In this document: piece after piece, positions 34,087 through 49,942 of the stretch
Numbering within the stretch: position 1 is the stretch's first letter
How the letters are laid out: each line of letters opens with the position of its first letter
Origin: a bacterium
GTDB taxonomy: Bacteria > Sysuimicrobiota > Sysuimicrobiia > Sysuimicrobiales > Segetimicrobiaceae
Assembly (NCBI GenBank): GCA_035945995.1
Contig: DASYZR010000153.1
Coordinates: 22,330-86,329 of the forward strand
Direction of reading: 5' to 3'
Length of the DNA: 64,000 nt
Position numbers and translations under genes: made by a program
The notes under the pieces: generated by a model
What the model was told of the DNA's origin: nothing
What the model saw: the letters and a program-made list of their open reading frames with translations, nothing else
The model's database searches: none

Positions 34087-35223
34087 CTACGGCGGCGGGA
34101 GCCGGCCGATTGCGAATAGACTCAGATCGAACCGGCTCGTCCCGTCCAGCACCAGGTCGGCCATGATCTCGCCGACGACGCTGCAAAACTTGAACCCGTG
34201 TCCGGAGAACCCCGCGGCGACGCCCACGTTCGGCCGGCCGGGGAGCCGGTCGAGAATGAAGTGCTCGTCCGGGCTGTTGGTGAAGAGACAGGTCTTCATC
34301 GCCATGGTCGGCCCGTCGGCGTCCGGAAAGTAGCGGCGGATCCCTTCCCGCAGGACCGCTTCGTCTTCGGGATGGATCTCGCGGTCCACCGTGCCGGCAT
34401 CGGTGTGCCCGCCGCGATGGTGATACTTCCCGATCTTGAACCCGGGGACGCTGTAGATGGGAAACCCGTAGAACCGTCCCTCGGGACCCTCCAAGTTGAA
34501 GACGGGAAACGCGCCGAGACGGAAGTACTCGGGTCGCAGCGGTTGGGCCCAGAGCAACACCTGCCGCTCCGGCACGGCCGCCCGGGCCAGGGCCGGCACG
34601 AGGCCCGCCGCCCACGGTCCCGCGGTGATCACGAGCCGATCCGCGGCATACTCACCGCGCGGCGTGTGGACACGCACCCCGTCGCCGCCGCCCTCCCACC
34701 GCAACGCCGGCTCCCGGGCGCGCACTTCCGCGCCGAGCGTCTGCGCCGCCGCCACGTGGGCGACGATCGTGCGCTCCGACAGGACGAACCCGCCGTCCGG
34801 TTGGTAGACGGCGATCATGTCGCTCGCGAGACGATACCCGGGATGGCGCCGGTGTAGCTCCGCGGCATTCCACCTTTCGTGGGGCAGGTGATGACGCTCA
34901 CACGAGAGGAGCGATCCCGTGACCGTCCGGCAGCCGTCCGGGCCGGCGTCGATGCTGCCTGTCACCACCAGCAGGCGCTCGCCGGCGAGATGTTCCAACT
35001 CCCGCCACAGCTCATACGCGCGGCGGAGCAACGGGACGTATGATGGGTGCTCCCAATACGCCAGGCGGATGATGCGGTTCGTCCCGTGCGACGAGCCGCG
35101 ATCGTGGGGAATGTCAAACTGCTCCAGGCCCAGCGTCCGGAGACCGCGTCGCGCCAAATGGTGGACGGCGGCGCTGCCCATGCCGCCCACACCGATCACG
35201 ATGGCGTCGTAGTGGCGCGTCAT
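34087..35223 (-). CDS. Monomeric sarcosine oxidase / N-methyl-L-tryptophan oxidase (SolA/MTOX) family FAD-dependent oxidoreductase
   Basis: MTRHYDAIVIGVGGMGSAAVHHLARRG...HGTNRIIRLAY...NSPDEHFILD...GFSGHGFKFCSVVGE (conserved flavinylation Cys region). Confidence 0.8.
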   Translation of the reverse strand: MTRHYDAIVIGVGGMGSAAVHHLARRGLRTLGLEQFDIPHDRGSSHGTNRIIRLAYWEHPSYVPLLRRAYELWRELEHLAGERLLVVTGSIDAGPDGCRTVTGSLLSCERHHLPHERWNAAELHRRHPGYRLASDMIAVYQPDGGFVLSERTIVAHVAAAQTLGAEVRAREPALRWEGGGDGVRVHTPRGEYAADRLVITAGPWAAGLVPALARAAVPERQVLLWAQPLRPEYFRLGAFPVFNLEGPEGRFYGFPIYSVPGFKIGKYHHRGGHTDAGTVDREIHPEDEAVLREGIRRYFPDADGPTMAMKTCLFTNSPDEHFILDRLPGRPNVGVAAGFSGHGFKFCSVVGEIMADLVLDGTSRFDLSLFAIGRLPPP

Positions 35224-35248: not shown

Positions 35249-36070
35249 CTAGACCCCGCTGAACGCGCTGAACCCGCCGTCCACCGGGATGACCGTCCCG
35301 TTCACGAACCGGCTGCCCGGGCCGCACAGCCAGATCACGGTTCCGATGAGGTCGCCGGGCTCGCCAAACCGGCCCGCGGGGGTGTGCTCGATGATCCGCC
35401 CGCCGCGCGGAGTGAGGCTCCCATCCTCGTTGGTGAGCAACCGGCGGTTTTGCTCCCCGATGAAGAACCCGGGCGCGACGGCGTTGACACGCAGGCCCGC
35501 GCCGTGCTTGCGCGAGAGCTCGACGGCGAGCCAGCGCGTCAAATTCTCGACCGCCGCCTTCGCCGCCGAATAGGCCGGCACGCGCGTGAGGACGCGTTGG
35601 GACGCCATCGACGACACGTTCACGATGCTGCCCCGCCCGGCCGCGGCCATCGCGGCGCCGAACGTCTGAATCGGCAGCAGCGTTCCGAGGAAATTCAGGT
35701 CCATCGCGGCCCGCCATCCCTCCACCGGCAGGTCGAGCACCGAGCCGCCGTTTGCGAGGGTGGCCTGCGGCAGGTTGCCGCCCGCCGCGTTGATCAGGAT
35801 GTCGACGCGTCCCCATCGCCCGACCACGTCGTCCCGGGACCGCGCCAGCGTCGCCGGGTCGAGCACGTCGGCGGCCAGCGGCATCGCCTCGCCGCCGGAG
35901 CGCTCGATCTGCGCGACGACCTCCCGCGCGCGCTCGAGCCGGCGGCCGAGGACGCCCACCCGGGCGCCGGCCGCGGACAGGCCGCGAGCCATCGCCGACC
36001 CCAGGACGCCGCTTCCGCCGGTGACCACCGCCACCGTGCCGCGCAGGTCGAAGAGCTGCTCGGGTGTCAT
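35249..36070 (-). CDS. Short-chain dehydrogenase/reductase (mannonate / altronate-oxidoreductase-like SDR)
   Basis: VAVVTGGSGVLG...NAAGG...YSAAKAAV. Confidence 0.7.
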   Translation of the reverse strand: MTPEQLFDLRGTVAVVTGGSGVLGSAMARGLSAAGARVGVLGRRLERAREVVAQIERSGGEAMPLAADVLDPATLARSRDDVVGRWGRVDILINAAGGNLPQATLANGGSVLDLPVEGWRAAMDLNFLGTLLPIQTFGAAMAAAGRGSIVNVSSMASQRVLTRVPAYSAAKAAVENLTRWLAVELSRKHGAGLRVNAVAPGFFIGEQNRRLLTNEDGSLTPRGGRIIEHTPAGRFGEPGDLIGTVIWLCGPGSRFVNGTVIPVDGGFSAFSGV

Positions 36071-37590
36071 CCGCCCGCCTCCGGCCCGTCCTCGTCAGGG
36101 GACGCCGCCCCGGCGAACGCCGAAAGGTGGCGGATGAAATGGCGCTCCACCGTGGCGTCGTAAGCCTCCGGGTTGGCCCGTAGAACGGCGCGCAGCCGCT
36201 CGCCGTAGGCCGCCAGCGCCGAGCCGAACGTGACGTGCAGCATCTCGCGCGCGTCGAAGTCGTCGAGCAGCGACGCGAGGTCCGCGTCCGCCACCGCCCG
36301 CGGCGCGGGCGCCCGCTCGGGACGCGCCGACACGTGGTAGCTGGCCCGGTCGTGCTCGTAGCGCTCGTGCGCCAGCGCGTAGATGGCGCGAAACAACTCC
36401 GGATCCAGTGGCGCGATCGTGCGCAGCGCTTCGAGGTAACTCGTCCCGGCCGTCTTGATGTGCGCGAGCGTCCCGGCCTGCCGGGCAAACGCGCCGTACA
36501 CGCTCAATTTGTCCGAACCGGAATGCAGGCTCAACTTGTAGGAGCCGAGGCGGCGCGCGATCGCCGCGTGCACCGCGGCGTCGGCCTCGAACGCGGCGGG
36601 ATCGCCGATATAGTCCACGCCCTTCTCGAAGCGCCCGACGAAGCGCGGCGCGAGGCTCACCCACCGGACGTCCAACCGGCGCAGCTCGGTCGCGACGTAG
36701 GCGTGCTGCACCGGCGTCGTCGGCGTATCGGTTTCATCGACCGAGATCTCCACCTCGGCGTCACCGCCGCGCGCGCGGAGATGACGGTAGAGGGCCGCGA
36801 CGTGGGCCACCGCGCGCCCGTACTTGAGGGCGGCCCGCGCGATCCCCTCGTCGTCGAAGACGATGACCCGCCCGTCCGCCTCGAGCGTCCGGCCGCGGTA
36901 GCGCGCTTCGAGCCCCGCGCGGGAATCCTCGAGCGCGTTCCATGGAAGCGCGTCGAGGGCCGCGGCCACGGCGGCGGCCGGCCGCGCATCGGCGGCCGGA
37001 TCCACGTACGCGCCCGGATCGAACGTGAAGAACGTGTACCCCGCGGCGAGACACGCGTCGACGTCCGCCGTCGTCTTCAGGTGATCCGCATCGGCGCCGA
37101 AGCCTTCGCGCCACCCTTCTGCGAAAACACCCCAGGCGGCGTCCGTGAGCACCTGCACCGGATTGCGTCCGGTCCGCTCCATCTCGCGGATCGACTGCTG
37201 GGCAAAGATCGGGGCGAGCGCCGCTTCGCCGTGACGGTGGCCGCCGCCGGCCGCGCGCAGCGCCCGGATGTGGCCGGGCGTCGCCAGCCCGAGTCTGTCG
37301 CCGAAGCCGAAGGAGCGCGCGAGCCCCAGCCGGCGCGGCGCGAGCCACGGCAGCACACCCTGCAGCACCGCAAGGTTGTGGACGCCGAGCGGCCCGACCC
37401 GAAGCCACCGGCCGTCCGCGGCGGAGGTCTCCCCCTCGAGATCCCGCAACGCCGCCGGTACCTCCGGGGCCAGCGCCGCCAGCCGGTCCCCCGCCGGCGT
37501 GCGCGCCAGCCCCACCTCCGCCTCGCCGATCTGGACCACCGACCGGGGCCGGACATCGAACCCGGGAACCGACGACAACCGTGCCATCAT
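36067..37590 (-). CDS. uxaE: Tagaturonate / fructuronate epimerase UxaE-family protein
   Basis: 507 aa. Size and a run of conserved segments (GYTFFTFDPGAYVD...HIKTAGTSYLEALR...) recalled as matching the UxaE family. Confidence 0.55.
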   Translation of the reverse strand: MMARLSSVPGFDVRPRSVVQIGEAEVGLARTPAGDRLAALAPEVPAALRDLEGETSAADGRWLRVGPLGVHNLAVLQGVLPWLAPRRLGLARSFGFGDRLGLATPGHIRALRAAGGGHRHGEAALAPIFAQQSIREMERTGRNPVQVLTDAAWGVFAEGWREGFGADADHLKTTADVDACLAAGYTFFTFDPGAYVDPAADARPAAAVAAALDALPWNALEDSRAGLEARYRGRTLEADGRVIVFDDEGIARAALKYGRAVAHVAALYRHLRARGGDAEVEISVDETDTPTTPVQHAYVATELRRLDVRWVSLAPRFVGRFEKGVDYIGDPAAFEADAAVHAAIARRLGSYKLSLHSGSDKLSVYGAFARQAGTLAHIKTAGTSYLEALRTIAPLDPELFRAIYALAHERYEHDRASYHVSARPERAPAPRAVADADLASLLDDFDAREMLHVTFGSALAAYGERLRAVLRANPEAYDATVERHFIRHLSAFAGAASPDEDGPEAGG

Positions 37591-37603
37591 CTGGGCGCGC
37601 TCA

Positions 37604-38971
37604 TCAGAAGTTTCCGGGGGCCGGCCGGCCCCGGACGGCCTGTCCCCCGTAGGGGAGCACCGGGTCGAGCGGCGGGCGAAGCGTCCCGTCCTCCGCGAAC
37701 ACGAGGGCGGCCGGCGCCGCGTCCGCGACGGGGCCGGCGTGTGGCAGCAGGTGGGGCACGAGGGACTCCGAAACGGCGACCTCGCGGAGCGCGAGCGTGT
37801 TGCGAATGTACACGAGGCGCGTCTCTCCGCCGTCGATCCGCGGCGCGGTGAGCACCGCGGCGTCCAGGACGTCGCGGTCGCTCGCCAGCACCATCGGCAG
37901 GCGCACCGAGTCGATGACCGTGGACGTGAGCGCGTTCATATACGTCGCGGGCAGGTCGATCTTCTCGAGCACCCGCTGCGGGATGAGGTCCGCGAGGCCC
38001 AGGCCGTTGGCGTTGCCCTGCGTCTCGGCGGTGAGGTCCAGCACCGCGATCTTCCGGATCACGGGACCGCCGGAGGCGAACGGCGTGGGATAGCGGCCGG
38101 TGATGTTCGGGTCCATCCCGTCGCCGCTGATGTTCTTGCCGATCTCCTGCACGACGAGCACGTCGGCCTCTGTCACGGGCAGGCGCGCCATGAGACTCCT
38201 CGCGCGGTCCAGCAGCGCGGGCTCACGCTCGAGGAACGCTTCGGGGGGAACGACGGCCAGCTGCACCGGCACGTCGTAGGCGTCTTCGATCGTCGCGACG
38301 CCGAACAGGAGCGGCGCACGCCGCGCCACGATGCCGTAGGCCTCGACCAGGCGGTCGGCGAACCCGCCGAAGCCCGGGGCGTGCATCGACTGCGCGCCCC
38401 GCTGCTTGCCGATCCCGATCACGGCCATCTTGACGAGGCCGCTCTCGATCACGCCGCGAAAGGCGGTATGCGGCTTGACGCGCCCGATCGCGACGGCGGC
38501 GCCGGCCCGATGCGCCTCACGGTCCCAGTACACGCCCGACCCGTCGGCCAGCCGGCCGAGCTCGACCACGTCCATCGACGACACGACCGGCGCGCCCACC
38601 GCCGCCTCCGTGACGCCGAGGCCGGCGAGCACCTCCCGCTGGCCCTCGGCCGTCGCGCCGCCGTGGCTGCCCATCGCGGGCACGATGAACGGCCGGGCGC
38701 CGTGCCGGCGCAGCGCCTCCACCACCGCCTTTGTTATCCGGGGCAGCTCGGCGACGCCGCGGCTGCCGGCCGCCACCGCGACGGGGCCGCGCGGAATCCG
38801 CCGCACGATGTCGGGGGCCGCGATCTGGCGGTGAATCTCCGCTTCGACGTCGCAGCGGCCCGGCGTCGGGAACTGCTGACGTACGCGAACCAGGCGGGGC
38901 AGCGGGGCCGTCGCCGGCGCGCGAATGCCCTCGACCGCGACCGCCCCGGCGCGAGTGCCGTCCGTGCCCAT
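37604..38971 (-). CDS. larA: LarA-family nickel-pincer (NPN) cofactor-dependent hydroxyacid racemase / epimerase homolog
   Basis: 455 aa (DUF2088 / LarA_N); conserved GRVKPHTAF segment (the KPH Lys-Pro-His typical of LarA cofactor tethering / catalysis); TGATG overlap with the upstream isomerase gene. The genomic neighbourhood holds larBCE. Confidence 0.7.
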   Translation of the reverse strand: MGTDGTRAGAVAVEGIRAPATAPLPRLVRVRQQFPTPGRCDVEAEIHRQIAAPDIVRRIPRGPVAVAAGSRGVAELPRITKAVVEALRRHGARPFIVPAMGSHGGATAEGQREVLAGLGVTEAAVGAPVVSSMDVVELGRLADGSGVYWDREAHRAGAAVAIGRVKPHTAFRGVIESGLVKMAVIGIGKQRGAQSMHAPGFGGFADRLVEAYGIVARRAPLLFGVATIEDAYDVPVQLAVVPPEAFLEREPALLDRARSLMARLPVTEADVLVVQEIGKNISGDGMDPNITGRYPTPFASGGPVIRKIAVLDLTAETQGNANGLGLADLIPQRVLEKIDLPATYMNALTSTVIDSVRLPMVLASDRDVLDAAVLTAPRIDGGETRLVYIRNTLALREVAVSESLVPHLLPHAGPVADAAPAALVFAEDGTLRPPLDPVLPYGGQAVRGRPAPGNF

Positions 38972-39768
38972 CACCCCTTTCGCGTCACCCACGCGTGGGC
39001 CGGATCCTCGCTGGCCATCAGGTGCCGTCCCTCGCCGGCCAGCGCCCACAGATAGTAGAGACGGTACCCGGGCGCCGCCACCACGGGATGATACCCGAAG
39101 GGAATGACGACCGTGTCCCCGTCCTCCACCACGAACGTGGAATCGACGTGCCGCTCCGGCGAGTAGAGGCGTTGGAAGCCGAAGCCGTCTTTGGGTTTGA
39201 CGCGGTAATGGTACAGTTCCTGGAACACGACCTCGCGCGGCGGGTCGTGACGATCGTGCTTGTGCGGCGGATAACTCGACCAGGCCCCCGGCTCGTTGAA
39301 CGTTTCCCCGGCCACGAGGCGCTGCGCGGGCTTGGACTCGTCGAGGATCGTGTGCACGGTCCGGCGCCACGCGCCTTCGCCGCGCACGGCCACCGTGACC
39401 TCGGACGGCCGGATGACGTAGGCTTCCCCGCCCTCGGGGGCGGGCGCGCGGAACACGGCGATCTCGGCCGGCCCGCCGGCGGTGATCCGGTAGGCGGCGC
39501 CCGGCGGCGCGTACACCGAGGTCGCCACCCCGTCGAACACGTCGCTCCGCCCGCCCAGGTCGGTCCAGGTCTCCATGCCCTTGACGGCGATCGAGCACCG
39601 CCCGCCGAGGATGACGAGCAGCGATTCCTTGCCCGGCGAGACCATGTCCACCGATCGGCCGGGCGCCGGCCGGACGAGCGCGAGTTCGAGTCCGTCCGAG
39701 TCGGAGTTCGCCGGATTGACGATCTCCGAGACGCCGTCCGGCGCGCCGTGCTTGAAGAAGACCTTCAT
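38971..39768 (-). CDS. KduI/IolB-family bicupin isomerase (5-keto-4-deoxyuronate or 5-deoxyglucuronate isomerase-like)
   Basis: 265 aa, MKVFFKHGAPDG...; bicupin size; GGAGGTG RBS 8 nt upstream. Confidence 0.55.
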   Translation of the reverse strand: MKVFFKHGAPDGVSEIVNPANSDSDGLELALVRPAPGRSVDMVSPGKESLLVILGGRCSIAVKGMETWTDLGGRSDVFDGVATSVYAPPGAAYRITAGGPAEIAVFRAPAPEGGEAYVIRPSEVTVAVRGEGAWRRTVHTILDESKPAQRLVAGETFNEPGAWSSYPPHKHDRHDPPREVVFQELYHYRVKPKDGFGFQRLYSPERHVDSTFVVEDGDTVVIPFGYHPVVAAPGYRLYYLWALAGEGRHLMASEDPAHAWVTRKG

Positions 39769-39808
39769 GACGTTTGCACCTCCGAGGTGAGGTTCCGGCC
39801 CGGCGGCG

Positions 39809-41062
39809 TCAGAGCAGGCCCTCGAGCGACACCGAGACGGCGGGATCGGCCCAGCGCGTATTGGGGATGTAGGGATACCACTCCGGCCGGCCGGGGTCCC
39901 GGTCGTATGGGTAGCCGCCCACCTCCCGGTAGTGCTCCGCGTAGCGGGCGACCTTGTCGCGGTCGAGCCGCACGCCGAGCCCCGGGGAGGCGGGGACCGC
40001 GATGCATCCGTCGCGGTACGGGAGCTTGCCGCCCTCGATGACGTCGTCCGTGAGGTGGTGGTAGTGCGCGTCGGCGGCAAAGACGAGGTTCGGCATCACG
40101 GCGGCGAGGTGGAGCATCGTGGCGAGCTGGATCCCGAGCTCGCCGGACGAGTGGACGGCCACGCCGAGCTGGAAGGTCTCGCACACGCCCGCGGCCTTGA
40201 GGCACGGCCGGATGCCGCCCCAGAACGTGGTGTCGAGCAGTACTATGTCCACGGCCGGCCGGAGGATGTTGGCCGCGAGCCCCTCGAAGTCGATCACGGC
40301 CGTGTTCGTGGCCAGCGGCACGCGTACGCGCTCCCGCAGGCGGCGCAGGCCGTTCAGGCCCCAGGTGGGATCTTCGAGGTAGTCGTTGCGGAGGTCCTCG
40401 ATGGCCCGGCCGAAGCGGATCCCTTCCTCGACGCCCAGCACCGCGTTCGGATCGTACCGCAGCGAGTCTTGCGGAAACGCCTCGCCCAGCGCGCGGTAAC
40501 ACGCGAGCTCGTAGTCGGGCGGAAAGACGCCGCCTTTGAGCTTGTGCGTCCGGAAGCCGTGCGTGCTCCGCAGGTCGCGGGCGTGCGCGACGAGCTGTTC
40601 GACCGTGCGCACCTCGCCCTTCCCGGTGGCGGGACTCGCGTAGCGAAAGAAGAGGTACCCGGCGAAGGGGATCTCCTCACGCAGCGGGCCGCCGAGCAGA
40701 TCGTAGACGGGCACCCCGAGCGCCTGTCCGATGAGATCGAGGCAGGCGAACTCGATGGCGGCGTGCAGCTGCGTCCGGTTGTTGTACAGCGCGGCCGTGG
40801 GATTGCCGATCTTGAAGCGGAGCTGTTCCAAGTCGAACGCGTCGTGGCCGAGCACGTAGGGCTTGAGGCCGGCGAGCGCGGCCTGCGCGCCCTCCCCGCC
40901 GCCGCCCAACTCCCCGAGGCCCACGAGCCCGTCGGCCGTCTCGAGCTCGACGATGGTGCGGACGAACCGGCCCCAGTGCGCGCCGTTGCTGTGGCGGAGC
41001 GGCGCCTCGAGCGGCACCGTCACGGTGGTGGCGCGCAGGTCGGCGATCGGCAGGCGCTTCAT
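39809..41062 (-). CDS. Enolase-superfamily acid-sugar dehydratase (glucarate-dehydratase GudD-like)
   Basis: 417 aa; ...[13 protein letters not shown]...[11 protein letters not shown]...[23 protein letters not shown], matching the GudD-type C-terminal metal / His-Asp dyad region. ATGA overlap with the permease stop. Confidence 0.65.
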
Positions 41063-41883
41063 TGGCGGACGCGGATGACCATGTTGACCGGGTTGACGAA
41101 CCGCAGGGCCGCCAGCAGCAGGACGAGGCCGGTCACCATGTAAACGACCGCCATGGCGTCGATCGCTTGGCTCGGCCGGATGCCCGCCGCGAACGCGGTG
41201 TAGTAGAGCGCGACGACGAGGGTCTGGCTCTTCGCACCGGAGACGAGGAACGTCAGTTCGAACAACGCGATCGCTCTGACGAGGATCAGCAGGCCGGCCG
41301 CCAGCGCCCCGGGCAGTGCGATCGGCAGCAGGACCCGCCGCATTACGCGGGTGGGAGAAGCGCCGAGCGTGCGCGCCGCCCGCTCCAAGTTTGGATCGAT
41401 CTGTTCGAAGAACGGAGTCATGATCAGCACGACGAAGGGGAGCGCCGGCACGATATTCACCAAAATCACGCCGGCCAGCGTGCCGCCGAGATGGAGACCG
41501 TACAGCATCGCGGCCAGCGGAATGCCGTAGGTAATCGGCGGCACCAGCATCGGCAGGATCAGGAGGATAAGCACGACCGGGCGCCCCGGAAAGGCGCTTC
41601 GGGCCAGGGCGTACGCGGCGGGCACGCCGAGCGCGAGGCTGATGACCGTCACGGACAGCCCGACCACGATCGTCACGCCGAGCACGTACGAGAGATCGAA
41701 CTCCGTGACGGCGAATTGATACCACTTGGCGGTGTAGCCATCCGGCAGCCAACCCCCAAACCACGTCGACGCGATCGAATTCAAGAAGGCCGAGAGGAAG
41801 ATCCCGGCCACGAGCAGGCCGAACAGGATCACGATCGCGTAGACCCACCACGACGCGCCTTCCCGGGCATGCGCCCGGCTCAT
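41059..41883 (-). CDS. ABC transporter permease (PotC / UgpE-like), EAA loop present
   Basis: 274 aa, 6 TM; EAA motif [27 protein letters not shown]. Confidence 0.8.
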
Positions 41884-42800
41884 CCGCGGCCTCCGATGGT
41901 CGCGCCGCGATAGGCCCGGCTCCGCGCCGCGAGTACTAAGGCCACGAACACCAGCTCGATCGCCGCCATCACCATGGCAATCGCCGACGCCCGCGCGTAG
42001 TCGTAGTTTTCGTACGCCGCCTGCCACGCCGCGAGCGCGATCACGCGCGTCGACCCGGCCGGCTCACCGACGAGCACCGCCGACGGGAAGACGGAGAACG
42101 TCGCCACAAACGACAGCGCGGCCGCGGCCGCGATGCCCGGCGCGAGCAGCGGCAGCGTCACCCGCGAGATGCGCTGCCACGCCCCGGCGCCGAGCGTGCG
42201 GGCCGCCCGCTCCAGGGCGGGATCGAGCCCCGACGCGTAGCCCAGAAGCACCAGGAAGACCGCGGGGAAATCCGAGATCGTCAGCGACAGAAACACGCCG
42301 GTGTAGTTGTGGACAAACTGGACCGGCGACGCGATCAGGTGCAGCGCGATCAGCAGCTTGTTGACCCACCCGGCCGGCCCGAAGAACTCGATCATCCCCT
42401 CCGCCAGCAGCACCGTCCCGAGCGTCATCGGGATCACGAGCAGCCCGGTGATGACGCGCTGCCCGGGGATCGGCCGCCGGAGGCGGTAGGCCAGCGGCAG
42501 CGCGACCGCGAGATCGAGGAGCGTCACGGGAAGCGCGAGCCGGAGGGTGTTCCAGATCGACAGCCGCTCCCGGGCGTCGCCGAAGAACGCGGCATAGTTC
42601 GCGAATATCCCGGCTTTGGCCAGGGCGCCCTGCGGGTGGACCGACAGCTCCAGGCCGTAGACGAACGGGTAGATGAACAGTCCCAGCACGACGAGAAACG
42701 CCGGCGCGATCGGGAGCACGGCCCCCCACCGGCGGCGCGCCCGCGGGACCGCGGCGGCCGCCGCCTCACGCATGCGTGTCCGATCGGCCCGCTGCGCCAT
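41880..42800 (-). CDS. ABC transporter permease (PotB / UgpA-like)
   Basis: 306 aa; EAA motif [27 protein letters not shown]. Confidence 0.8.
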
Positions 42801-42805
42801 GCGGC

Positions 42806-43936
42806 CTACTCCGGCGGGAACACCAGCAGCCGGTCCGGGTCCACCTGCAGGACCACGGGCGCCCCGTGCGGCCAGCGCGCGGCGGTCCTCACGACAAACA
42901 ACTCGCCGGCGTCCGCCGCCACGCTGCATTCGAACGCGCCGCCGATGAACTCCGCGAACTCGATCTTCGCCGGCACGCCGCCCGCGGCCTCGGCGGGAGG
43001 CAGCACCCGTACGTCCTCCGGCCGCACCGCCGCGACGGCCTCGGCCCCGGCCGCGAGTTCGCCGCGCGGCCGGCCCTCGAGCCGCAGGCTCCCCGCGGCG
43101 ACGACCTGCGCCCGGTCGCCGCGCACCGCCTCGACCCGCACCGGGAACAGATTGCGGTAGCCGAAGAAGTTGGCGACGAACGCGGATTGCGGATGAAGGT
43201 ACACTTCCTCCGGGGTTCCGATCTGCCGTATGGTCCCATCCTTCATCAGCGCGATGCGGTCGGACAGCGACAGGGCCTCCTCCTGGTCGTGGGTCACGTA
43301 GAACGTCGTGAGGCCGAGGGCTTGATGCAGGCGCCGGATCTCGAGGCGCATCTCCAGCCTGAGCTTGGCGTCCAGGTTGCTGAGAGGCTCGTCCATCAGG
43401 AGCAGGCGGGGCTCGATGACCAGCGCACGCGCGAGGGCGACACGCTGCTGCTGACCGCCGCTCAACTGGGCCGGATACCGGTCGCCGAGGCCCCCGAGGT
43501 GCACGAGCGCGAGCACCTGCCCGACGCGACGCGTGATCGCCTCGTCCGGCACCCCCATCATCTCGAGCCCGAACGAGACGTTGCGGCCGACGGTGAGGTG
43601 CGGAAACAGCGCGTAACTCTGGAACACCACGCCGAAGCCCCGCCGCTCCGGGGGCACCGGGGCGAGGTCGTCTCCGTCGAGCAGGATCCGCCCGGCATCG
43701 GGGTCGACGAGGCCGGCGAGACAGTTGAGCGCCGTGCTCTTGCCGCAGCCGGAGGGACCGAGCAGACTGATGAACTCGCCGCCGTGCACGTCGAGGTCGA
43801 ACGCGGAGAGCGCGACGGTCTCGCTGAACCGCTTGCCGAGCCCGCGCATCTCCAGTCGGCCGATGCTCCGGCCGGAGAGCGCCGCCGGTGCGCCGCCCTC
43901 CGGCCTGGACGGCCGGGCCGTGGTCCCGGTGCTCAC
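42806..43936 (-). CDS. ABC transporter ATP-binding protein (PotA/MalK-type with C-terminal regulatory / TOBE-like domain)
   Basis: GPSGCGKST; LSGGQQQRVALARAL; LLLMDEPLSNLD. GTGA overlap with the binding-protein stop. Confidence 0.85.
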   Translation of the reverse strand: MSTGTTARPSRPEGGAPAALSGRSIGRLEMRGLGKRFSETVALSAFDLDVHGGEFISLLGPSGCGKSTALNCLAGLVDPDAGRILLDGDDLAPVPPERRGFGVVFQSYALFPHLTVGRNVSFGLEMMGVPDEAITRRVGQVLALVHLGGLGDRYPAQLSGGQQQRVALARALVIEPRLLLMDEPLSNLDAKLRLEMRLEIRRLHQALGLTTFYVTHDQEEALSLSDRIALMKDGTIRQIGTPEEVYLHPQSAFVANFFGYRNLFPVRVEAVRGDRAQVVAAGSLRLEGRPRGELAAGAEAVAAVRPEDVRVLPPAEAAGGVPAKIEFAEFIGGAFECSVAADAGELFVVRTAARWPHGAPVVLQVDPDRLLVFPPE

Positions 43937-45150
43937 TTGAGTTTGTTCGCGCCTACCCGCTGGTCCCAGAGCTGGAACGCCTGCACCAGCTTGTCCGGAG
44001 CCAAGGGGATTTCGATGGGCCGGGTTCTGATGAGATCGTCAAACAACGGCCGCCGCACCGGACCGACCTGGTCCTGACTGGCCTTGGGCGCCATAGCCAG
44101 CGTGACGCCCTTGACGGCCGGCCCCGGATAGAAGTAGCCGGTGTCGAACGTCTTCGCCTGCTGCTCGGGCCGGAGCACCCACGCGATCAGATCCAGCACC
44201 AGCCCAAGCATCTCCGGCGAGTTGCCCCGGGGCACGCAGATGTACTGCGTGTCGGCGATCAGGCGTTCGTTCTCGAATGCGAACGCGCCGAAGTTCTTCG
44301 GCACCACGCCGAGCGCCCGAACGTTGAGATCCCATCCCATCGTCGAGGCCGCGATCGTGCGGGCGCCCTGCCCCAACTCCTGAAACGTCCCGGCCGTCCC
44401 CGTGGGATAGTACTGAAGGTACTGGCCGAGCTGCTGGTAGTACGGCCACACCTTTGTCCACGACTGAGGCTCCCGGGGCTGCGGCTCTCCGAGCATATAG
44501 GGCAGACCCATCAAAAAGCTGCGGCCCGGTCCGGAGTTGGCCGGCCGCGCGTAGATCAACTGCCGCGGGTTGGCCTTCGCCCACGCCAGCAGGTCCTCAG
44601 GCGTCTTCGGCGGATTCGGCAGCTTCGCCGGGTTGTACGTGAACGTCGGGCCGTAGTTGCCGAAGACGTCCAGGATGCCGTAGCCCTGCGCGAGGCCCTG
44701 CGCCTTCGGCTGCTGGTAGTTGCCGATGAGGTTGGGCCACTTCGCCTGAAAGTCCGGCAGGAGCCGCTGCCAGATGTCCTGGACGATGCCCGCCGACAGC
44801 GCGTCGGAGCCCGTGAGCACCATGTTGATCTGGAGCTGGTTGGCCGCCTGCTGCGCCTTGATCTTCGCCGGCAGCTCCGGCGCCGTCGCCTGCTGGTAAC
44901 TGATGCCGCCGACGTACTGCCGGTGCGACCCGGCGTAATCCTCGATGATGCTCTTCGTGAGCTGCAGCTGGCCCGCGACGTCGATGATGGTCAGCTGGAG
45001 CGGACGGGACGGCATCGGCGGCAGCGCCGCCTGTGCCGCCTGGGCGACGCCGGGACGGCCGGTCCACCACTGCGTGCCGGCCGCCGCCGCCGTTGCCCCG
45101 GCGCCGATGAGAAATGCTCTGCGGTTGAACGACTGAGGATCCTTCGTCAC
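43933..45150 (-). CDS. Extracellular solute-binding protein (family 1) with twin-arginine (Tat) signal
   Basis: SFNRRAFLIGAGATAAAAG Tat motif. GTG start with GGGGGGTGG 3 nt upstream. The track start at 45234 is probably too far upstream. Confidence 0.75.
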   Translation of the reverse strand: MTKDPQSFNRRAFLIGAGATAAAAGTQWWTGRPGVAQAAQAALPPMPSRPLQLTIIDVAGQLQLTKSIIEDYAGSHRQYVGGISYQQATAPELPAKIKAQQAANQLQINMVLTGSDALSAGIVQDIWQRLLPDFQAKWPNLIGNYQQPKAQGLAQGYGILDVFGNYGPTFTYNPAKLPNPPKTPEDLLAWAKANPRQLIYARPANSGPGRSFLMGLPYMLGEPQPREPQSWTKVWPYYQQLGQYLQYYPTGTAGTFQELGQGARTIAASTMGWDLNVRALGVVPKNFGAFAFENERLIADTQYICVPRGNSPEMLGLVLDLIAWVLRPEQQAKTFDTGYFYPGPAVKGVTLAMAPKASQDQVGPVRRPLFDDLIRTRPIEIPLAPDKLVQAFQLWDQRVGANKLK

Positions 45151-45289
45151 TTGCCACCCCCCACCGTGGTCTATTGTAGTCCACCCCAACCTAATGATGG
45201 CCGTCGAGGGCGGCGCCGGGCATCCATCCTGCACCCGATTCGCGCGTAGGGTATGATCCCCTGCGCGAGCGCCGACGTGCGGGCGGGGC

Positions 45290-46534
45290 CTACGTCGACC
45301 GCACGTGTCCCCGGCGACGGTCGAGGGGACGCGGTGTGCCCGGCGCCGCCGCCGCGCGCTGCGCGGCGGCGATGACCCGCTTGACGGGTACGCCGTGGCG
45401 CGCGGCCAGCACCCGGCACGCCTCGAACTCCGGGGCGACGTTCACGACGCCTGTGTCATCACCGGCGATCTTCACCGGAACGGAGCCGTACTCCGTCTCG
45501 ACCTCCACGGTCTGCCGGTCCACCGCGAGGCGGGTGACCTCGTGCGCGCGGACGCCGAGCGTCGTCGTCTCCGCGAGCAGGATCCCGGCAAGTCCCCGCG
45601 CCAGCTCCGGTGCGGCGAGCACCCGCACCAGGTGGCCGGGCCGGCCTTTCTTCATGACCGCCGGCACGACGGCCACGTCGAGCGCGCCCGCGTCGAACAA
45701 CCGGGCCGTCACGTGCGGGTATAACTGCGGATTCATGTCGTCGATGGACGTTTCCAGCATCACAAGACGCTCCGTGCGCGACGCGTCGCCCAACAGGCCC
45801 GCGTCCCCCCGGCCGTACACCTCCATCGATTCGCCGACGAACAGCCGGAGCACGTTCGCCCGCGCCGGATCGTCGCGGCCGGCGCCGGTGCCGATCCGCT
45901 CGAGGCGCATCGGCGGCAGCGGACCCCACCCGGTCACGAGCGCGCGCAGCAGCGCGGCGCCGGTCGGCGTCAGCCACTCGCCCTCGATCTCGCCGGCGTA
46001 CACGGGCATGCCTTCGAGGAACGCCTGCGTCGCGGGCGCCGGCACCGGCACGGCGCCGTGCCGGATGTGCGCCCACCCCCGCCCGACGTTCACCGGGGAC
46101 GCGACCACGCGCTCCAGCCCGAGCGCGTCCACCCCGGCGAGCACGCCGACGACATCGACCAAGGTGTCGAGACCGCCGAGTTCGTGCAGGTGCACGTCCT
46201 CGATCGGCACGCCGTGGATCTGCGATTCGACCTCGGCCAGGCGCCGCAGCACCTCGCCGGCGCGGACGCGCACCGGCGCGGCGACCCGGCAGCCGTCCAC
46301 GATCGCCGCGAGCCGCGGATAGGGGCGCGCGGAGGCCGGATCGTCGTCGACCACCTCCACGCGCAGCGCGGGCACGCCGCGCCGCTCCGCCCGGTTCACC
46401 GTCACTCGAACCGGAACGCCGAGCCCCGCGACGACCTCCTGGAGCGCCGCCTCCGGCCACCCCGCGCCGACGAGGGCCCCGAGCAGCATGTCCCCGCTCG
46501 CCCCGCTCCCGCAGTCAAGGTAGCCGAGACGCAT
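45290..46534 (-). CDS. larC: LarC, nickel insertase for the nickel-pincer nucleotide cofactor (DUF111)
   Basis: MRLGYLDCGSGASGDMLLGALVGAG is the canonical LarC N-terminus; 414 aa. Confidence 0.85.
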   Translation of the reverse strand: MRLGYLDCGSGASGDMLLGALVGAGWPEAALQEVVAGLGVPVRVTVNRAERRGVPALRVEVVDDDPASARPYPRLAAIVDGCRVAAPVRVRAGEVLRRLAEVESQIHGVPIEDVHLHELGGLDTLVDVVGVLAGVDALGLERVVASPVNVGRGWAHIRHGAVPVPAPATQAFLEGMPVYAGEIEGEWLTPTGAALLRALVTGWGPLPPMRLERIGTGAGRDDPARANVLRLFVGESMEVYGRGDAGLLGDASRTERLVMLETSIDDMNPQLYPHVTARLFDAGALDVAVVPAVMKKGRPGHLVRVLAAPELARGLAGILLAETTTLGVRAHEVTRLAVDRQTVEVETEYGSVPVKIAGDDTGVVNVAPEFEACRVLAARHGVPVKRVIAAAQRAAAAPGTPRPLDRRRGHVRST

Positions 46535-47357
46535 GCTCCTCCTCTGACACGTCCCGCGCGCGCGCGGTCGGGGCCCCCTCGTCCCCCCCTATGGGGGGCG
46601 GGGGGGCAGGCAGGCCGGTCCCGTTGATGCAGGCGGCAAGATAGCCCGCGCCGAATCCGTTGTCGATGTTCACCACCGCGACGCCAGGGGCGCAGGCGGT
46701 GAGCATCGTGAGCAGCGGGGCCAGGCCGCCGAAGTGGGCGCCGTAGCCGACGCTCGTCGGCACGCCGATCACGGGCGCCCGCGTGAGCCCGGCCACCACC
46801 GCGGGCAGCGCGCCGTCCATGCCGGCGACGACCACGAGCGCCCGAGCCCGCTCGAGCAGCGCGCGGTGCGCCCCCAGGCGGTGCAGCCCGCTCACGCCCA
46901 CGTCATAAACGCGCGCCACGTCGGCGCCCATCACCTCCGCGGTCCACGCCGCCTCCTCGGCGACAGCGAGGTCGCCCGTCCCTCCGGTCAACACGCCCAC
47001 ACACCCGGCCCGGCGCTCCGGGACTCCCCCGAGCACGAGAAGGCGGGCCTGCGCAACGTACGTCGCATCGGGAAACGCGCCGGCCACGCCGGCCGCCACA
47101 TCCGGGGCCGCGCGCGTCAGCAACACGGGGCCGCCGGCCCGGCGCAGGGCGGACGCGATCTCGACGATCTGCCCGACGGACTTTCCGGGACAGTACACCG
47201 CCTCCGGCGCGCCGCGGCGCAGCGGCCGGTGCGTGTCGACCTTGGCGAAGCCGAGCTCCACGAAGGGCAGCCAGCGCAGCGCCGAGACGGCGTCCGCCAC
47301 GGCCACGCGGCCGGTCCGCACGTCCTCCAGCAGCCGAGCGAGCGTGTCTTCGTTCAC
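46515..47357 (-). CDS. larB: LarB, PurE-like carboxylase / hydrolase of nickel-pincer cofactor biosynthesis
   Basis: 280 aa; PurE-like core VGVLTGGTGDLAVAEEA...VVVAGMDGALP...GVPTSVGYG. GTGA overlap with the larE stop. Confidence 0.8.
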   Translation of the reverse strand: MNEDTLARLLEDVRTGRVAVADAVSALRWLPFVELGFAKVDTHRPLRRGAPEAVYCPGKSVGQIVEIASALRRAGGPVLLTRAAPDVAAGVAGAFPDATYVAQARLLVLGGVPERRAGCVGVLTGGTGDLAVAEEAAWTAEVMGADVARVYDVGVSGLHRLGAHRALLERARALVVVAGMDGALPAVVAGLTRAPVIGVPTSVGYGAHFGGLAPLLTMLTACAPGVAVVNIDNGFGAGYLAACINGTGLPAPPPPIGGDEGAPTARARDVSEEEHASRLP

Positions 47358-48253
47358 GCGCCGCGCCCGTGCGAGGCGGAGACGCCGGACTCGCGCGCCT
47401 CGGGACCGGCCGGTATGGACTCGCCGGCCGGCGCCGGCGAAAAGCGTCCCGAGCGCAGCCCGTCGGGAGCGATGCGCGCGGTGCTGAACCCGATGGCGCG
47501 AAACGCCTCCGTCACCCGATCGAAAATGGCGGCGAGACGTCCGATCTCGGGCACCGGTACTTCGACGCTCGCGGCGGCGCCGTGGTGACGCACACGGACC
47601 TCGCGGAATCCGAGTCCCCGCACCACGCGTTCGGCCGCCTCGATCTGGCCGAGCGCCGCCACGGTCACGGGGGACCCGAACGGCAGCCGCGACGCCAGAC
47701 ATGGCGCGGCCGGCTTGTCCCAGACCTCCAGGCCCATGCGACGCGCGAGCGCGCGGATGTCGGCTTTGCCGAGACCCGCGTCGAGCAGCGGAGCCTGCAC
47801 GGCAAACTCCGCCGCCGCGCGCATCCCGGGCCGGTCGTCGCGGCGATCGTCGGCGTTGGCCCCGTAGACGACGGCCGGCAGCCCGAGGTCACCGGCGAGC
47901 CGCGCCAGATCCGTGAACAGCGCGTGCTTGCAGAAATAGCAGCGGTTCGCGTCGTTGCGAAGATAGCGGGCGTCCTCGAACTCGCGCGTCTCCACGCGGA
48001 TGTGCCGCACGCCGAGCGCACCGGCGATCCGCTCCGCGATGGCGAGCTCGTCCCGCGCGAGCGACGGGGACACCGCGGTCGCCGCCACGCACCGGTCGCC
48101 GAGGACGCCGTGGGCGACGGCGAGCAGGTACGCGCTGTCCACGCCGCCGGAAAACGCGACCACGACCCCGCCGAGACTTCGGAGGAGGGCTTCGAGCCGC
48201 GCCTGTTTCCCCGCGGGCATGTCTGCGCCCGCGTCTTCCACCGGCACTCGCAT
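47354..48253 (-). CDS. larE: LarE, PP-loop ATP-dependent sulfur transferase of nickel-pincer cofactor biosynthesis
   Basis: VVVAFSGGVDS PP-loop; CYFCK; conserved Cys in PAAPCLASRLP (LarE sacrificial Cys region); 299 aa. The alternative start is M12 at 48220. Confidence 0.8.
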   Translation of the reverse strand: MRVPVEDAGADMPAGKQARLEALLRSLGGVVVAFSGGVDSAYLLAVAHGVLGDRCVAATAVSPSLARDELAIAERIAGALGVRHIRVETREFEDARYLRNDANRCYFCKHALFTDLARLAGDLGLPAVVYGANADDRRDDRPGMRAAAEFAVQAPLLDAGLGKADIRALARRMGLEVWDKPAAPCLASRLPFGSPVTVAALGQIEAAERVVRGLGFREVRVRHHGAAASVEVPVPEIGRLAAIFDRVTEAFRAIGFSTARIAPDGLRSGRFSPAPAGESIPAGPEARESGVSASHGRGA

Positions 48254-48358: not shown

Positions 48359-49003
48359 TTAGGCCGGCGCGCGCCGCAGCTGGCTGCCGCCCCATGCCAG
48401 CCAGATGATCACCAAGATAAATCCGAGGCCCATCAGCGCCATCTGGGTACTGAACACCTGCAGAATCTCCGCGATGCCGGCCACCACCGCGACCCATCCA
48501 AGCGTACGGTTCATCACGCCCGTGTCGACGATCGCCCATCCGGCGACCAGCACGGCCGCGCCCGTAAACGCGTTGCCGGCGGCCATCGTGGCCTGGTTGA
48601 CGGCGGCGATTGCCGTCCATGCGTGCGCGGCGGCCGTCTGATCCCTGGCCGACAACGCCGCGAGCATGGCACCACCCTGCCACAGGAGCGCCGCTCCGAG
48701 CGCGTGTAGCGCGAGGCCCACAACGGCGAGCCCCAGGGTGGCGACCGCGCGGGTCGGCGCCTTCTCCCGCAGACGGGCAAACACGCCGAACGTGAAGATC
48801 AGGCCGAAACCGGCCGACAGCAGGCCGAGAACGCCGATCGTTCCGAAGAGACCCGCCTTTTGTGCGATGACGGGAAGCGCCCTGCTCGGATCCAGCGCGG
48901 TCTGTGGGTCGAGCCCGCTCGACGCAAAGAGGATGAACAGCAACGCAAGGCAGATCGCCGTGATGAACCCCGCCGTGCCGCCGTTATGCTGGATTCGTTC
49001 CAT
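48359..49003 (-). CDS. Hypothetical polytopic membrane protein (DUF4386-like)
   Basis: 214 aa with about 6 hydrophobic helices; no catalytic motifs recognised. Confidence 0.5.
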   Translation of the reverse strand: MERIQHNGGTAGFITAICLALLFILFASSGLDPQTALDPSRALPVIAQKAGLFGTIGVLGLLSAGFGLIFTFGVFARLREKAPTRAVATLGLAVVGLALHALGAALLWQGGAMLAALSARDQTAAAHAWTAIAAVNQATMAAGNAFTGAAVLVAGWAIVDTGVMNRTLGWVAVVAGIAEILQVFSTQMALMGLGFILVIIWLAWGGSQLRRAPA

Positions 49004-49024
49004 GTCTCTCCCCCCTTCTCGTGC

Positions 49025-49942
49025 TCATCCAGTGTCCGAGGCCAACCAGACCCCGGCGAACGTGAACAACGCACCCAACGCCTGCAGCGTGCTGAGGGAC
49101 TCGCGGAGCAGAAGCGCCGCGATCACGACCGCCGAGACCGGCTCGAGGTAGACGTAGACCATGGTCTCCCGCGGTCCCAACCGGTGGAGCGACCGGCCCC
49201 ACAACGCCATCGCCACGACCATCCCCGCCGTGGCGCCGTATACGAGTCCCGCCCACGCCCCCCACGACACGGTCCCCCAGGCGTGCCGCGCCATTTCGGG
49301 GACGGCGAGCGGCGCGAACACCAGCATGGCGATTCCCATCGCCCATCCGGTCGCCTGCCAGGTGCCGGCGGCGTCCACCACCTGACCGACGGCGAGACTG
49401 TACCAGACCCACGCGGCGGCCGCGCCGAGAGCGAGCACGTCACCCGCCGCACGGGATAGGTCGAACCCGCCCGACGCCCCCCGCACGATGAGCGCGACGC
49501 CCGCGAGTCCCAGCAGGAGTCCGGTCCATCGACGGCCGTCCGGCGTGTCGCCGCGGCGGAGCGCCAGCCACACCGCGGTCAGAATAGGCGAGGCCGCGAG
49601 CAGAATCGCGCTTTGGCCGGCCGTCGTCCACCGCAGGCTGCCGATGAGCAAGATCTGAAAGGTCGCCTGCGCGATCCCGGCCTTCGCGAGCGGCCACCAG
49701 AGGTCGCGGGGCATGGGGTGCCGCCGCGGCATCCAGACGGCGGCCAGGACGGCCGCGGCGAGCACGAGACGGAGAAACGTGAAGCTCAGCACCGGGATCT
49801 CCCGAAGCGCGAGCCGGGCGCCGGGGTAGATGCCGCCCCAGAGCACGACGGCCAGCAGCGGCTCGACGCGAACTCTGCGGCGGAGACCGCGGGCCGCCGT
49901 GTGCGAGACCGCCGCGCCGTCGGCGGCGTTCAGGAAACCCAC
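49025..49942 (-). CDS. EamA / DMT-superfamily transporter
   Basis: Two EamA-like repeats, about 10 TM helices (LWGGIYPGARLAL...). The start is uncertain, either the track M or an internal V. Confidence 0.7.
   Translation of the reverse strand: MGFLNAADGAAVSHTAARGLRRRVRVEPLLAVVLWGGIYPGARLALREIPVLSFTFLRLVLAAAVLAAVWMPRRHPMPRDLWWPLAKAGIAQATFQILLIGSLRWTTAGQSAILLAASPILTAVWLALRRGDTPDGRRWTGLLLGLAGVALIVRGASGGFDLSRAAGDVLALGAAAAWVWYSLAVGQVVDAAGTWQATGWAMGIAMLVFAPLAVPEMARHAWGTVSWGAWAGLVYGATAGMVVAMALWGRSLHRLGPRETMVYVYLEPVSAVVIAALLLRESLSTLQALGALFTFAGVWLASDTG

Follow-up and report, generated by a model that had tools for sequence, protein, structure and literature searches.

A 12-gene operon joins sugar-acid enzymes to nickel-pincer cofactor genes

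We analyzed a 64,000-nt stretch of bacterial DNA (assembly GCA_035945995.1, contig DASYZR010000153.1, positions 22,330 to 86,329 of the forward strand; ~71% G+C), referred to throughout as the window, and within it an operon that contains a homolog of LarA, the prototype of the enzymes that use the nickel-pincer nucleotide (NPN). Genes were called by frame analysis of G+C content at third codon positions (GC3), and identities were assigned from Pfam and NCBIfam profile scans with curated cutoffs. Together, these analyses place 12 consecutive, close-packed genes on the minus strand between positions 35249 and 48253 (Table 1). Seven of the junctions are stop/start overlaps (ATGA or GTGA), and the remainder are spaced by 5 to 40 nt, with the sole exception of a gap of 55 to 140 nt between larC and the binding-protein gene, the width of which depends on the start chosen for the latter. 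No regulator gene was found inside the 12-gene unit, and neither a nickel transporter nor a transcriptional regulator was found adjoining it. A scan of the operon for sigma-70 and terminator consensus sequences gave counts no different from those of shuffled sequences.

Table 1. Genes of the operon in the window, in gene order from position 48253 down to 35249 (ABC, ATP-binding cassette; NaAD, nicotinic acid adenine dinucleotide; SDR, short-chain dehydrogenase/reductase; Tat, twin-arginine translocation)
Gene or product	Position in window	Strand	Profile matches and remarks
larE, ATP-dependent sulfur insertase of NPN synthesis	47354-48253	-	TIGR00268, 295 bits (cutoff 150)
larB, NaAD carboxylase/hydrolase of the NPN pathway	46515-47357	-	NF033503, 258 bits (cutoff 175)
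larC, nickel insertase	45290-46534	-	Pfam Ni_insertion, 420 bits; TIGR00299 (LarC1), 179 bits; NF052512 (LarC2), 142 bits
Solute-binding protein with Tat signal	43933-45234 (likely GTG start at 45150)	-	SBP_bac_8, 78 bits
ABC ATPase, MalK/MsiK type with TOBE domain	42806-43936	-	ABC_tran, 120 bits; TOBE_2, 35 bits
ABC permease 1	41880-42800	-	BPD_transp_1
ABC permease 2	41059-41883	-	BPD_transp_1; ATGA overlap with permease 1
Enolase-superfamily acid-sugar dehydratase, GlucD-related subgroup	39809-41062	-	MR_MLE_C, 180 bits; MR_MLE_N, 42 bits
IolB/KduI-family cupin isomerase	38971-39768	-	Pfam KduI, 273 bits; TIGR04378, 237 bits (cutoff 205)
LarA homolog, group 22, 455 aa	37604-38971	-	NF052515, 500.1 bits (cutoff 400), model positions 1-388 of 392
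UxaE-family tagaturonate/fructuronate epimerase	36067-37590	-	Pfam PF16257, 443 bits, model positions 50-473 of 475
SDR, D-mannonate oxidoreductase (fructuronate reductase, UxuB type; PRK08277 type)	35249-36070	-	NF006132, 365 bits (cutoff 281)

Most of this layout had been anticipated in a first-pass annotation of the window, made from the DNA letters alone. The complete larE-larB-larC set that it placed at 45290 to 48253 is borne out by the profile scores, and the Tat-exported binding protein, ABC importer, KduI/IolB cupin, LarA homolog, UxaE, and SDR that it listed are all present on the minus strand at the positions it gave.

The LarA homolog belongs to group 22 and is very likely NPN dependent

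The model matched by the LarA homolog, NF052515, is titled "nickel pincer cofactor-dependent isomerase, group 22" and corresponds to group 22 of Desguin et al. 2020, which comprises 20 members, including Rxyl_2987 of Rubrobacter and Bcoa_1745 of Bacillus coagulans (PMC7583248). The only other NCBIfam match is to a malate racemase model (26.6 bits), and the Pfam matches are marginal (Lar_N at 24.7 bits, cutoff 23.3; DUF362 at 21.7 bits). The window protein closely resembles Rxyl_2987 and Bcoa_1745 and shares the group-22 residue signature (A, R, H, H, T, x, K, H), and it differs in belonging to a subclade of uncultured high-GC bacteria that is 47 to 55% identical to cultured members. It falls in group 22 (NF052515) and not among the lactate racemases, a placement that the first-pass annotation had named as grounds against its own reading. 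An exhaustive HMMER scan (E ≤ 1e-30) recovered at least 1,076 clusters of group 22 at 50% identity, of which the window subclade is one; the group occurs in Bacillota and Negativicutes as well as in uncultured soil lineages.

Neither phmmer nor hmmsearch with a 40-sequence family profile recovered LarA from the PDB, and the LarA homolog was matched only by chance, to anthranilate phosphoribosyltransferase and TAL-effector repeats (E 0.55 to 3.1). The kinship is recovered only by fold comparison and by Pfam, NCBIfam, and the profile-profile program hhalign. An AlphaFold (AF2) model of the protein (predicted local distance difference test [pLDDT] 87.3; predicted template modeling score [pTM] 0.87) was compared with the PDB by Foldseek. 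The top 16 matches are all LarA-family structures (9q3k, 9eia, 7s91, 2yjg, 5huq, and others) with E values of 5e-10 to 4e-7 and a probability of 1.00; these alignments extend over 400 to 496 columns and both domains at a template modeling (TM) score of ~0.5, and the next match has an E value of 8e-3. The predicted structure is thus a two-domain LarA fold.

Five residues that correspond to functional positions in LarA, namely R71, H103 (in MGSHGG), H168 (in KPH), K181, and H197, do not vary among 40 homologs, the most distant of which is 48% identical. Profile-profile alignment by hhalign to the LarA and GntE sequences of the Desguin dataset, which is of low confidence in the C-terminal domain, pairs R71 with R75, H103 with H108, H168 with H174, and H197 with H200 of LarA. 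Because the motif ESGLVK-x15-H aligns without gaps to FSGGRK-x15-H of LarA, K181 probably corresponds to K184, the residue that tethers NPN. The assignment of cofactor residues agrees with the group-22 rows of the published residue table (PMC7583248). The Lys and His residues for cofactor binding and catalysis, the loss of which the first-pass annotation had named as grounds against its reading, are thus kept. A fold match to LarA-family proteins only, five invariant residues, and a place in one operon with larE, larB, and larC make dependence of the LarA homolog on NPN very likely.

Compared with LarA of Lactiplantibacillus plantarum (5HUQ), the window protein shares the two-domain fold (Foldseek E 3e-8), the Lys tether, the His ligand, the Arg, the two catalytic His residues, and, very likely, dependence on LarB, LarC, and LarE. 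The two differ in sequence (15% identity), in the substrate pocket (F-F-W in LarA), and in context, which is that of sugar acids and not lactate. Where LarA has the hydrophobic pair F175/F176, the window protein has T169/A170 and the group-22 members of the Desguin set have T-D, and a three-residue insertion follows the second catalytic His, in a loop that Desguin et al. linked to substrate choice (PMC7583248).

The cofactor genes are complete. LarE carries an SGGVDS P-loop and the three cysteines of a CXXC-C motif (C105, C108, and C185), a motif that marks LarE of Thermotoga maritima as the [4Fe-4S] type (PMC9283937). By analogy, the window LarE would be a catalytic, [4Fe-4S]-dependent sulfur insertase and not a sacrificial enzyme of the L. 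plantarum type, even though the NCBIfam family to which it is assigned carries the label "sacrificial." The GTG start of larB overlaps the larE stop, and LarC1 and LarC2 are fused into a single open reading frame (ORF).

The neighboring genes point to hexuronate catabolism

The identities of the enzymes encoded around the LarA homolog differ in how closely profiles define them. That of UxaE is unambiguous, with strong matches in the PDB as well (9lhw, 348 bits; 6il9, 290 bits). The SDR, the final gene of the conserved cluster, scores above cutoff as a D-mannonate oxidoreductase; its second-best model is gluconate 5-dehydrogenase (189 bits), and its scores against KduD models (138 to 158 bits) lie below their cutoffs of 339 to 430. 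A KduI-KduD route for unsaturated uronates is not supported as the main role of the cupin and SDR, given 365 bits for mannonate oxidoreductase against 158 for KduD, although it may be a side activity.

The cupin, whose ORF stop overlaps the ATG of the LarA homolog gene, matches an IolB-like protein in the PDB (2qjv, 133 bits). Scans of the operon and of ~50 ORFs of the window turned up none of the other iol genes (iolC, -D, -E, -G, or -J). UxaC was not found in the operon. KduI of Escherichia coli facilitates the breakdown of galacturonate and glucuronate (PMC3578941), which makes it plausible that the cupin carries out isomerization of the UxaC type. We therefore assign it, provisionally, as the aldose-ketose isomerase of the imported uronate, in the position of UxaC; we found no description of an IolB/KduI cupin replacing UxaC.

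The enolase-superfamily protein scores far below two curated cutoffs, at 151.8 bits against 828.7 for GudD (TIGR03247) and 73 against 550 for ManD (NF043051). It is not a GudD orthologue, and the "GudD-like" label of the first-pass annotation has to be withdrawn. A glucarate or other aldarate pathway was likewise rejected on this score and on the absence of aldarate genes from the operon. The closest PDB entries (4it1, 3vdg, and 3vc5) are all "putative" glucarate dehydratases, and a literature search by PDB code found no functional assignment for them. The window enolase is unusually well conserved, with homologs of 75 to 89% identity across several phyla, in Gaiellaceae, Chloroflexia, Ktedonobacteraceae, and unclassified metagenome-assembled genomes (MAGs). 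On one Gaiellaceae contig (L089:999-14947; L-numbered contigs are compared loci from genomes and metagenomes outside the window), an 80%-identical enolase stands in the order GntR-ABC-GH38-DUF4432-aldose dehydrogenase (SDR type)-enolase-SGL lactonase-GH38, with no epimerase. This arrangement suggests an oxidative pathway from mannose through mannonate to 2-keto-3-deoxygluconate (KDG). The window enolase is a likely terminal dehydratase that would convert an aldonate, either mannonate or gluconate, to KDG.

The pair of IolB-like cupin and GlucD-like enolase also recurs in a different setting that lacks a LarA homolog (L087:5218-13493 and L096:3-10009). There it is accompanied by a GFO/IDH/MocA oxidoreductase, two xylose-isomerase-like TIM barrels (one IolO-like, 255 bits), a URO-D-like protein, and an SBP_bac_5 transporter, with an SDR in addition in L087.

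Upstream of these enzymes, the binding protein carries an N-terminal twin-arginine motif (SFNRRAFLIGAGATAAAAG), in which SFNRRAFL is followed by an Ala/Gly-rich stretch, as read from the sequence. It is 84 to 87% identical in the related contigs L001, L002, L090, and L092.

A sister operon lacks the LarA homolog

One genome contig (L001, "bacterium SMAG_U6314") and two metagenome contigs (L090 and L092) carry all 12 genes in unchanged order, at 73 to 87% amino acid identity, and partial copies are present on four more (L002, L091, L093, and L107). The SDR is 82 to 83% identical in the three complete copies. Beyond it, the contigs part ways. A gene for an oxidase like SolA follows the SDR in the window and is absent from L001, L090, and L092; it is succeeded in the window by a hydantoinase A/B pair, whereas the three related contigs carry a distant hydantoinase pair (36 to 37% identical) on the opposite strand. 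Because related contigs diverge in this way directly after the SDR, we place the end of the operon there.

A second set of contigs carries a sister operon at ~50% identity (L101:2119-10120, L102:1030-9740, and L103:312-6704), in the order solute-binding protein-ATPase-permease-permease-IolB-like cupin-ManD (NF043051, 702 bits, cutoff 550)-UxaE-mannonate oxidoreductase. No LarA homolog and no lar genes were found in the 10 to 16 kb of sequence available for each. From its gene content, the sister operon looks like a complete route from hexuronate to KDG, provided that the IolB-like cupin performs aldose-ketose isomerization of the UxaC type. The cupin position is kept in both operons, and the window enolase occupies the position of ManD. 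Because the remaining genes of the window operon alone form the uronate-to-KDG route of the sister operon, the LarA homolog and its cofactor genes appear as an add-on to an otherwise sufficient pathway.

Group-22 genes elsewhere keep company with hexuronate and gluconate genes

To extend the comparison, the neighbors of 80 group-22 loci were clustered and a neighbor-joining (NJ) tree was built, in which three clades are distinguished. The larE, larB, and larC genes lie within 10 kb of the LarA homolog in ~28 to 30 of the 80 loci. They are directly adjacent in all five of the distinct sister-clade contexts examined, and adjacency is seen in L003, L004, and L081 to L084.

Clade B (Paenibacillus, Neobacillus, Litchfieldia, and relatives; ~17 loci) has the core order LarAH22-SDR (PRK08277, 286 bits)-LarE-FGGY kinase-LarB-LarC. 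The best model for the kinase is gluconokinase, at 483 bits and below the cutoff of 649. These loci usually include a divergent ROK regulator. The gene for UxaC (621 bits) is immediately upstream in ~10 of them and at another place in the locus in ~5 more, and 6-phosphogluconate dehydrogenase (6PGD) is nearby in ~10. Six further loci, from Negativicutes, Desulfitobacterium, a Paenibacillus MAG, and Candidatus Deferrimicrobium, combine LarAH22 with an FGGY kinase and 6PGD. As judged from its genes, the clade B arrangement reads as a route from glucuronate through fructuronate, mannonate, and gluconate to 6-phosphogluconate. Exactly this route has been proposed for Thermotoga, in which gntE is described between the genes for fructuronate reductase and gluconate kinase (quoted in PMC6978723; PMC7583248, Table S1). 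The order in clade B mirrors this GntE arrangement and favors the manno/gluco pair as candidate substrates.

In clade A (Bacillaceae), the group-22 gene stands between genes for a tripartite ATP-independent periplasmic (TRAP) transporter and a D-2-hydroxyacid dehydrogenase on one side and a long IlvD/Edd-like dehydratase on the other. Nearby are genes for galactonate dehydratase (678 bits), galactarate-dehydratase-like proteins, alpha-ketoglutarate semialdehyde dehydrogenase (GucD, 899 bits), and a member of the dihydrodipicolinate synthase (DHDPS) family. The dehydratase that follows the group-22 gene in the Bacillaceae loci L009 to L064 is unusually long at ~734 aa (e.g., L041:11231-13435), and it scores far below the cutoffs of all curated IlvD, Edd, xylonate dehydratase, and arabinonate dehydratase models, which makes it a further sugar-acid enzyme outside the characterized families that is linked to group 22.

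The sister subclade of the window protein shows a compact order, PF04008-LarAH22-LarE-LarB-LarC (L081:9509-14960, L082:9465-14842, and L084:9499-14218). The product of the PF04008 ("adenosine specific kinase") gene is 160 to 178 aa long and has no NCBIfam match. RpiA directly follows larC in two of the three contexts (L081 and L082/L083), and L084 has a DUF5652 gene and an SDR instead; of the others, the two contigs that extend far enough also encode an SDR downstream.

Clades A and B are told apart by only seven alignment columns, across which the window protein is divided 3:3 and so sides with neither clade. So small a number of clade-distinguishing columns suggests a similar reaction and active site in all of the context clades.

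These neighborhoods agree with and extend published ones. Among the group-22 neighbors listed in Table S1 of Desguin et al., an SDR occurs in 45%, a COG0129 dehydratase, LarE, and a TRAP transporter in 30% each, a sugar kinase in 25%, and glucuronate isomerase in 20% (PMC7583248). The operon type found in the window, with an ABC importer, a GlucD-like enolase, an IolB-like cupin, and UxaE, is not in that survey (PMC7583248).

A tentative pathway with an epimerization step at C2

Our preferred reading, which we hold tentatively, is that all 12 genes belong to a single operon, equipped with its own supply of NPN, for the catabolism of an imported sugar acid of the hexuronate type and that the LarA homolog is a C2 epimerase. 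We infer the following substrates and order of steps. A hexuronate would enter through the Tat-exported binding protein and the ABC importer, and the IolB/KduI-like cupin would isomerize it to a keto-uronate, either tagaturonate or fructuronate. UxaE would convert tagaturonate to fructuronate, the UxuB-type SDR would reduce fructuronate to D-mannonate, and the enolase-superfamily dehydratase would yield KDG. LarE, LarB, and LarC would build NPN, which would be tethered to Lys181 of the LarA homolog, with His197 as nickel ligand. With His103 and His168 as acid and base, the enzyme would transiently pass a hydride to NPN and in this way invert a C6 sugar acid at its alpha-hydroxyl carbon, C2. 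One His would take the hydroxyl proton while NPN accepts the C2 hydride at C4 of its pyridinium ring; the hydride would then be given back on the opposite face, where the second His would serve as acid. Such hydride transfer on NPN is the established mechanism of LarA.

What the contexts described above appear to share is epimerization of a C6 sugar acid of the D-manno/D-gluco series at its alpha-hydroxyl carbon. By analogy with GntE, we regard D-mannonate and D-gluconate as the pair that the LarA homolog most likely interconverts, although not one to be asserted with confidence; within the same reading, 5-keto or 6-phospho forms of mannonate and gluconate would be an alternative pair. Through an epimerase of this kind, the mannonate branch would connect with gluconate metabolism or with a dehydratase that prefers gluconate. 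The first-pass annotation had proposed nickel-dependent epimerization in a hexuronate, aldarate, or aldonate pathway and had found the substrate not evident. The hexuronate/aldonate part is upheld by the residues, the fold, larE, larB, and larC, and the UxaE and SDR neighbors, and the aldarate part is not; comparison with other loci now favors one pair of C6 acids, D-manno/D-gluco, as the likely substrate.

Both precedents for this reading, GntE and the isomerase pathway, resemble the window operon incompletely. GntE activity (D-gluconate/D-mannonate 2-epimerase) has been shown for LarAH19 of Corynebacterium glutamicum and for LarAH20, TM0442 of T. maritima (PMC7583248). Common to GntE and the window protein are an NPN-type LarA homolog among hexuronate genes, proximity to an SDR of the fructuronate reductase type, and the predicted reaction, and clade B adds a gluconokinase-like kinase. 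However, the window protein belongs to another lineage of the superfamily and matches a mixed LarA/GntE profile at 64 to 70% probability over the N-terminal domain only. It has T-A after the catalytic His (T-D in other group-22 members) and not E-V/S, and it carries the three-residue insertion. Likewise, UxaE, the UxuB-type SDR, and a terminal aldonate dehydratase are shared with the UxaC-UxaE-UxuB-UxuA/ManD pathway of Thermotoga and Lactobacillus suebicus. The window operon differs from that pathway in having an IolB/KduI cupin for UxaC and a GlucD-related enolase for UxuA/ManD, and in the insertion of an NPN epimerase with its cofactor genes. This points to two further non-orthologous replacements, of UxaC by the cupin and of ManD/UxuA by the enolase.

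Several observations weigh against a GntE-type C2 epimerase. The signature residues of GntE (E, V/S ... A, H) are absent from the LarA homolog. Two residues of LarA that Desguin et al. count as catalytic, D72 and K298 (PMC7583248), are not conserved either: hhalign sets a gap beside A68 at the first, where the group-22 rows of Desguin et al. have A, and those rows have I at the second, which is the main basis for the latter statement. Invariant R293-Y294 lies beside the position aligned with K298, in the low-confidence part of the alignment, and could replace it. No gluconate kinase was found in the window operon. The 80%-identical enolase of L089, in a cluster without an epimerase, suggests that the dehydratase already accepts mannonate, which leaves the need for an epimerase unexplained. 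The clade A context makes other aldonates or aldarates possible. The window clade lies outside clades A and B in the NJ tree, and because these are the informative clades, transfer of function to the window protein is indirect and cannot be based on orthology. Finally, group 22 was entered as "Unknown function" in 2020 (PMC7583248), and it is not characterized in the later LarA literature that we consulted, namely a substrate survey (Journal of Biological Chemistry 2024), a methods paper (mBio 2024), single-histidine structures (Protein Science 2025), and aldo-keto reductase-type NPN enzymes (Nature Chemistry 2026).

Alternative reactions of the LarA homolog

If the group-22 homologs are not analogues of GntE, they may catalyze a novel NPN reaction on sugar acids, such as epimerization of a free hexuronate at C5, of a keto-uronate, or of a 6-phospho-aldonate, an alternative that we consider unlikely. 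A 6-phospho substrate is possible for clade B, and a 6-phosphomannonate 2-epimerase activity in L. suebicus is still without an assigned gene (PMC6978723). A broad or different 2-epimerase of aldonates or aldarates, which acts on the manno/gluco pair among other substrates or for which this pair has no physiological role here, is unlikely in our view. Candidate pairs would be D-altronate/D-allonate, D-galactonate/D-talonate, L-gulonate/L-idonate, and D-mannarate/D-glucarate. The TRAP transporter, dehydratase, GucD, and DHDPS-family neighbors in Bacillaceae fit such an enzyme, some LarA homologs isomerize up to 16 substrates (PMC11770544), and reduction of tagaturonate that had escaped UxaE would yield altronate. 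The window neighbors, however, are specifically UxaE and an SDR of the mannonate oxidoreductase type, and neither aldarate genes nor a dehydratase near the GudD cutoff is present in the operon. Inversion at the keto-uronate level, between D-fructuronate (5-keto-D-mannonate) and 5-keto-D-gluconate, would let 5-ketogluconate, L-idonate, or the isomerized forms of L-iduronate and L-guluronate enter the UxuB/dehydratase trunk. It would suit the location of the LarA homolog gene between those of the IolB-like isomerase and UxaE, which both act on uronates or keto-uronates, as well as the second-best model of the SDR. The trunk needs no epimerase for D-glucuronate or D-galacturonate, as the sister operon shows, and an added enzyme would then presumably serve to broaden the range of substrates. 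We nevertheless regard it as rather unlikely, since the known sugar-acid substrates of the LarA family are aldonates (gluconate and mannonate) and an aldarate epimer pair and not keto acids (PMC7583248, PMC11770544) and the gluconokinase-like kinase and 6PGD of clade B fit gluconate better.

Epimerization of free hexuronates at C5, between L-iduronate and D-glucuronate or L-guluronate and D-mannuronate, would formally be the chemistry of a 2-hydroxyacid epimerase, with C5 as the alpha-hydroxyl carbon of the carboxylate, and would provide a step that admits L-uronates to an operon which appears to import a uronate-type substrate and otherwise lacks one. Uronates are mostly pyranoses with O5 within the ring, though, no monomer-level uronate C5 epimerase of the LarA family is known, and in clade B the upstream UxaC together with the downstream kinase and 6PGD already explains an aldonate substrate, making this reading improbable. 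The residue differences at D72 and K298 and the insertion after the second catalytic His raise the further thought that group 22 does not invert its substrate at all and uses NPN for another hydride reaction, for instance an internal redox isomerization of a sugar acid. Desguin et al. mention this possibility for groups that lack catalytic residues (PMC7583248), and the NCBI family name says just "isomerase." With both catalytic His residues invariant, a potential substitute for K298 in R293-Y294, and a context that a simple epimerase explains, it is very improbable. A racemase of lactate or another short-chain 2-hydroxyacid that merely adjoins sugar-acid genes has in its favor that some activity as a lactate racemase is seen in many LarA homologs (PMC11770544). 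It is hardly credible here, where the lactate racemase models are unmatched, LarA is missed by sequence and profile searches of the PDB, the F175/F176 pair is replaced, and the gene overlaps its neighbor and keeps its place in four contigs.

What is on record for this system is the involvement of NPN-dependent LarA homologs in sugar-acid catabolism, exemplified by GntE, and the existence of group 22 and its neighborhood types in the literature and NCBIfam. New are the architecture of the operon, the LarA-less sister operon that isolates the epimerase as an add-on, and a context-based substrate hypothesis for a very large family. Group 22 is among the largest LarA lineages without an assigned function, and the proposal of a C2 epimerase, which draws on this operon, its LarA-less sister, and the clade B clusters, is both concrete and cheap to test. 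If it holds, a large family would gain an annotation, the mannonate-to-gluconate shortcut would have been recruited at least twice in the LarA superfamily, and nickel would be required for the use of uronates in many soil bacteria. A novel NPN reaction, were that instead the case, would open L-uronates to the isomerase pathway.

Surroundings of the operon in the window

Directly upstream of larE and on the same strand lie genes for a DUF4386 membrane protein and an EamA-family transporter (48359-49942). At the other end, 26 nt past the SDR and also on the same strand, the SolA-like oxidase gene (34087-35223) encodes a protein of the N-methyl-L-tryptophan oxidase type (NF008425, 480 bits) that probably lies outside the sugar-acid unit. 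Two pairs of hydantoinase/oxoprolinase B and A genes are present, at 1894-5813 on the plus strand and 30307-34615 on the minus strand, with a mutual identity of ~37%, as are two genes for large subunits of molybdenum hydroxylases (9617-12361, plus strand; 25791-28262, minus strand). Together they suggest catabolism of N-heterocycles or lactams around the sugar-acid operon. The last part of the window, 55117-63999, has a G+C content of 0.63 to 0.65, compared to 0.70 to 0.75 elsewhere, and contains very large ORFs on the minus strand. One of these, of 1,472 aa, has beta-propeller and helix-hairpin-helix matches, and another, which continues past the window end and measures at least 1,125 aa, contains a Laminin_G_3 domain.

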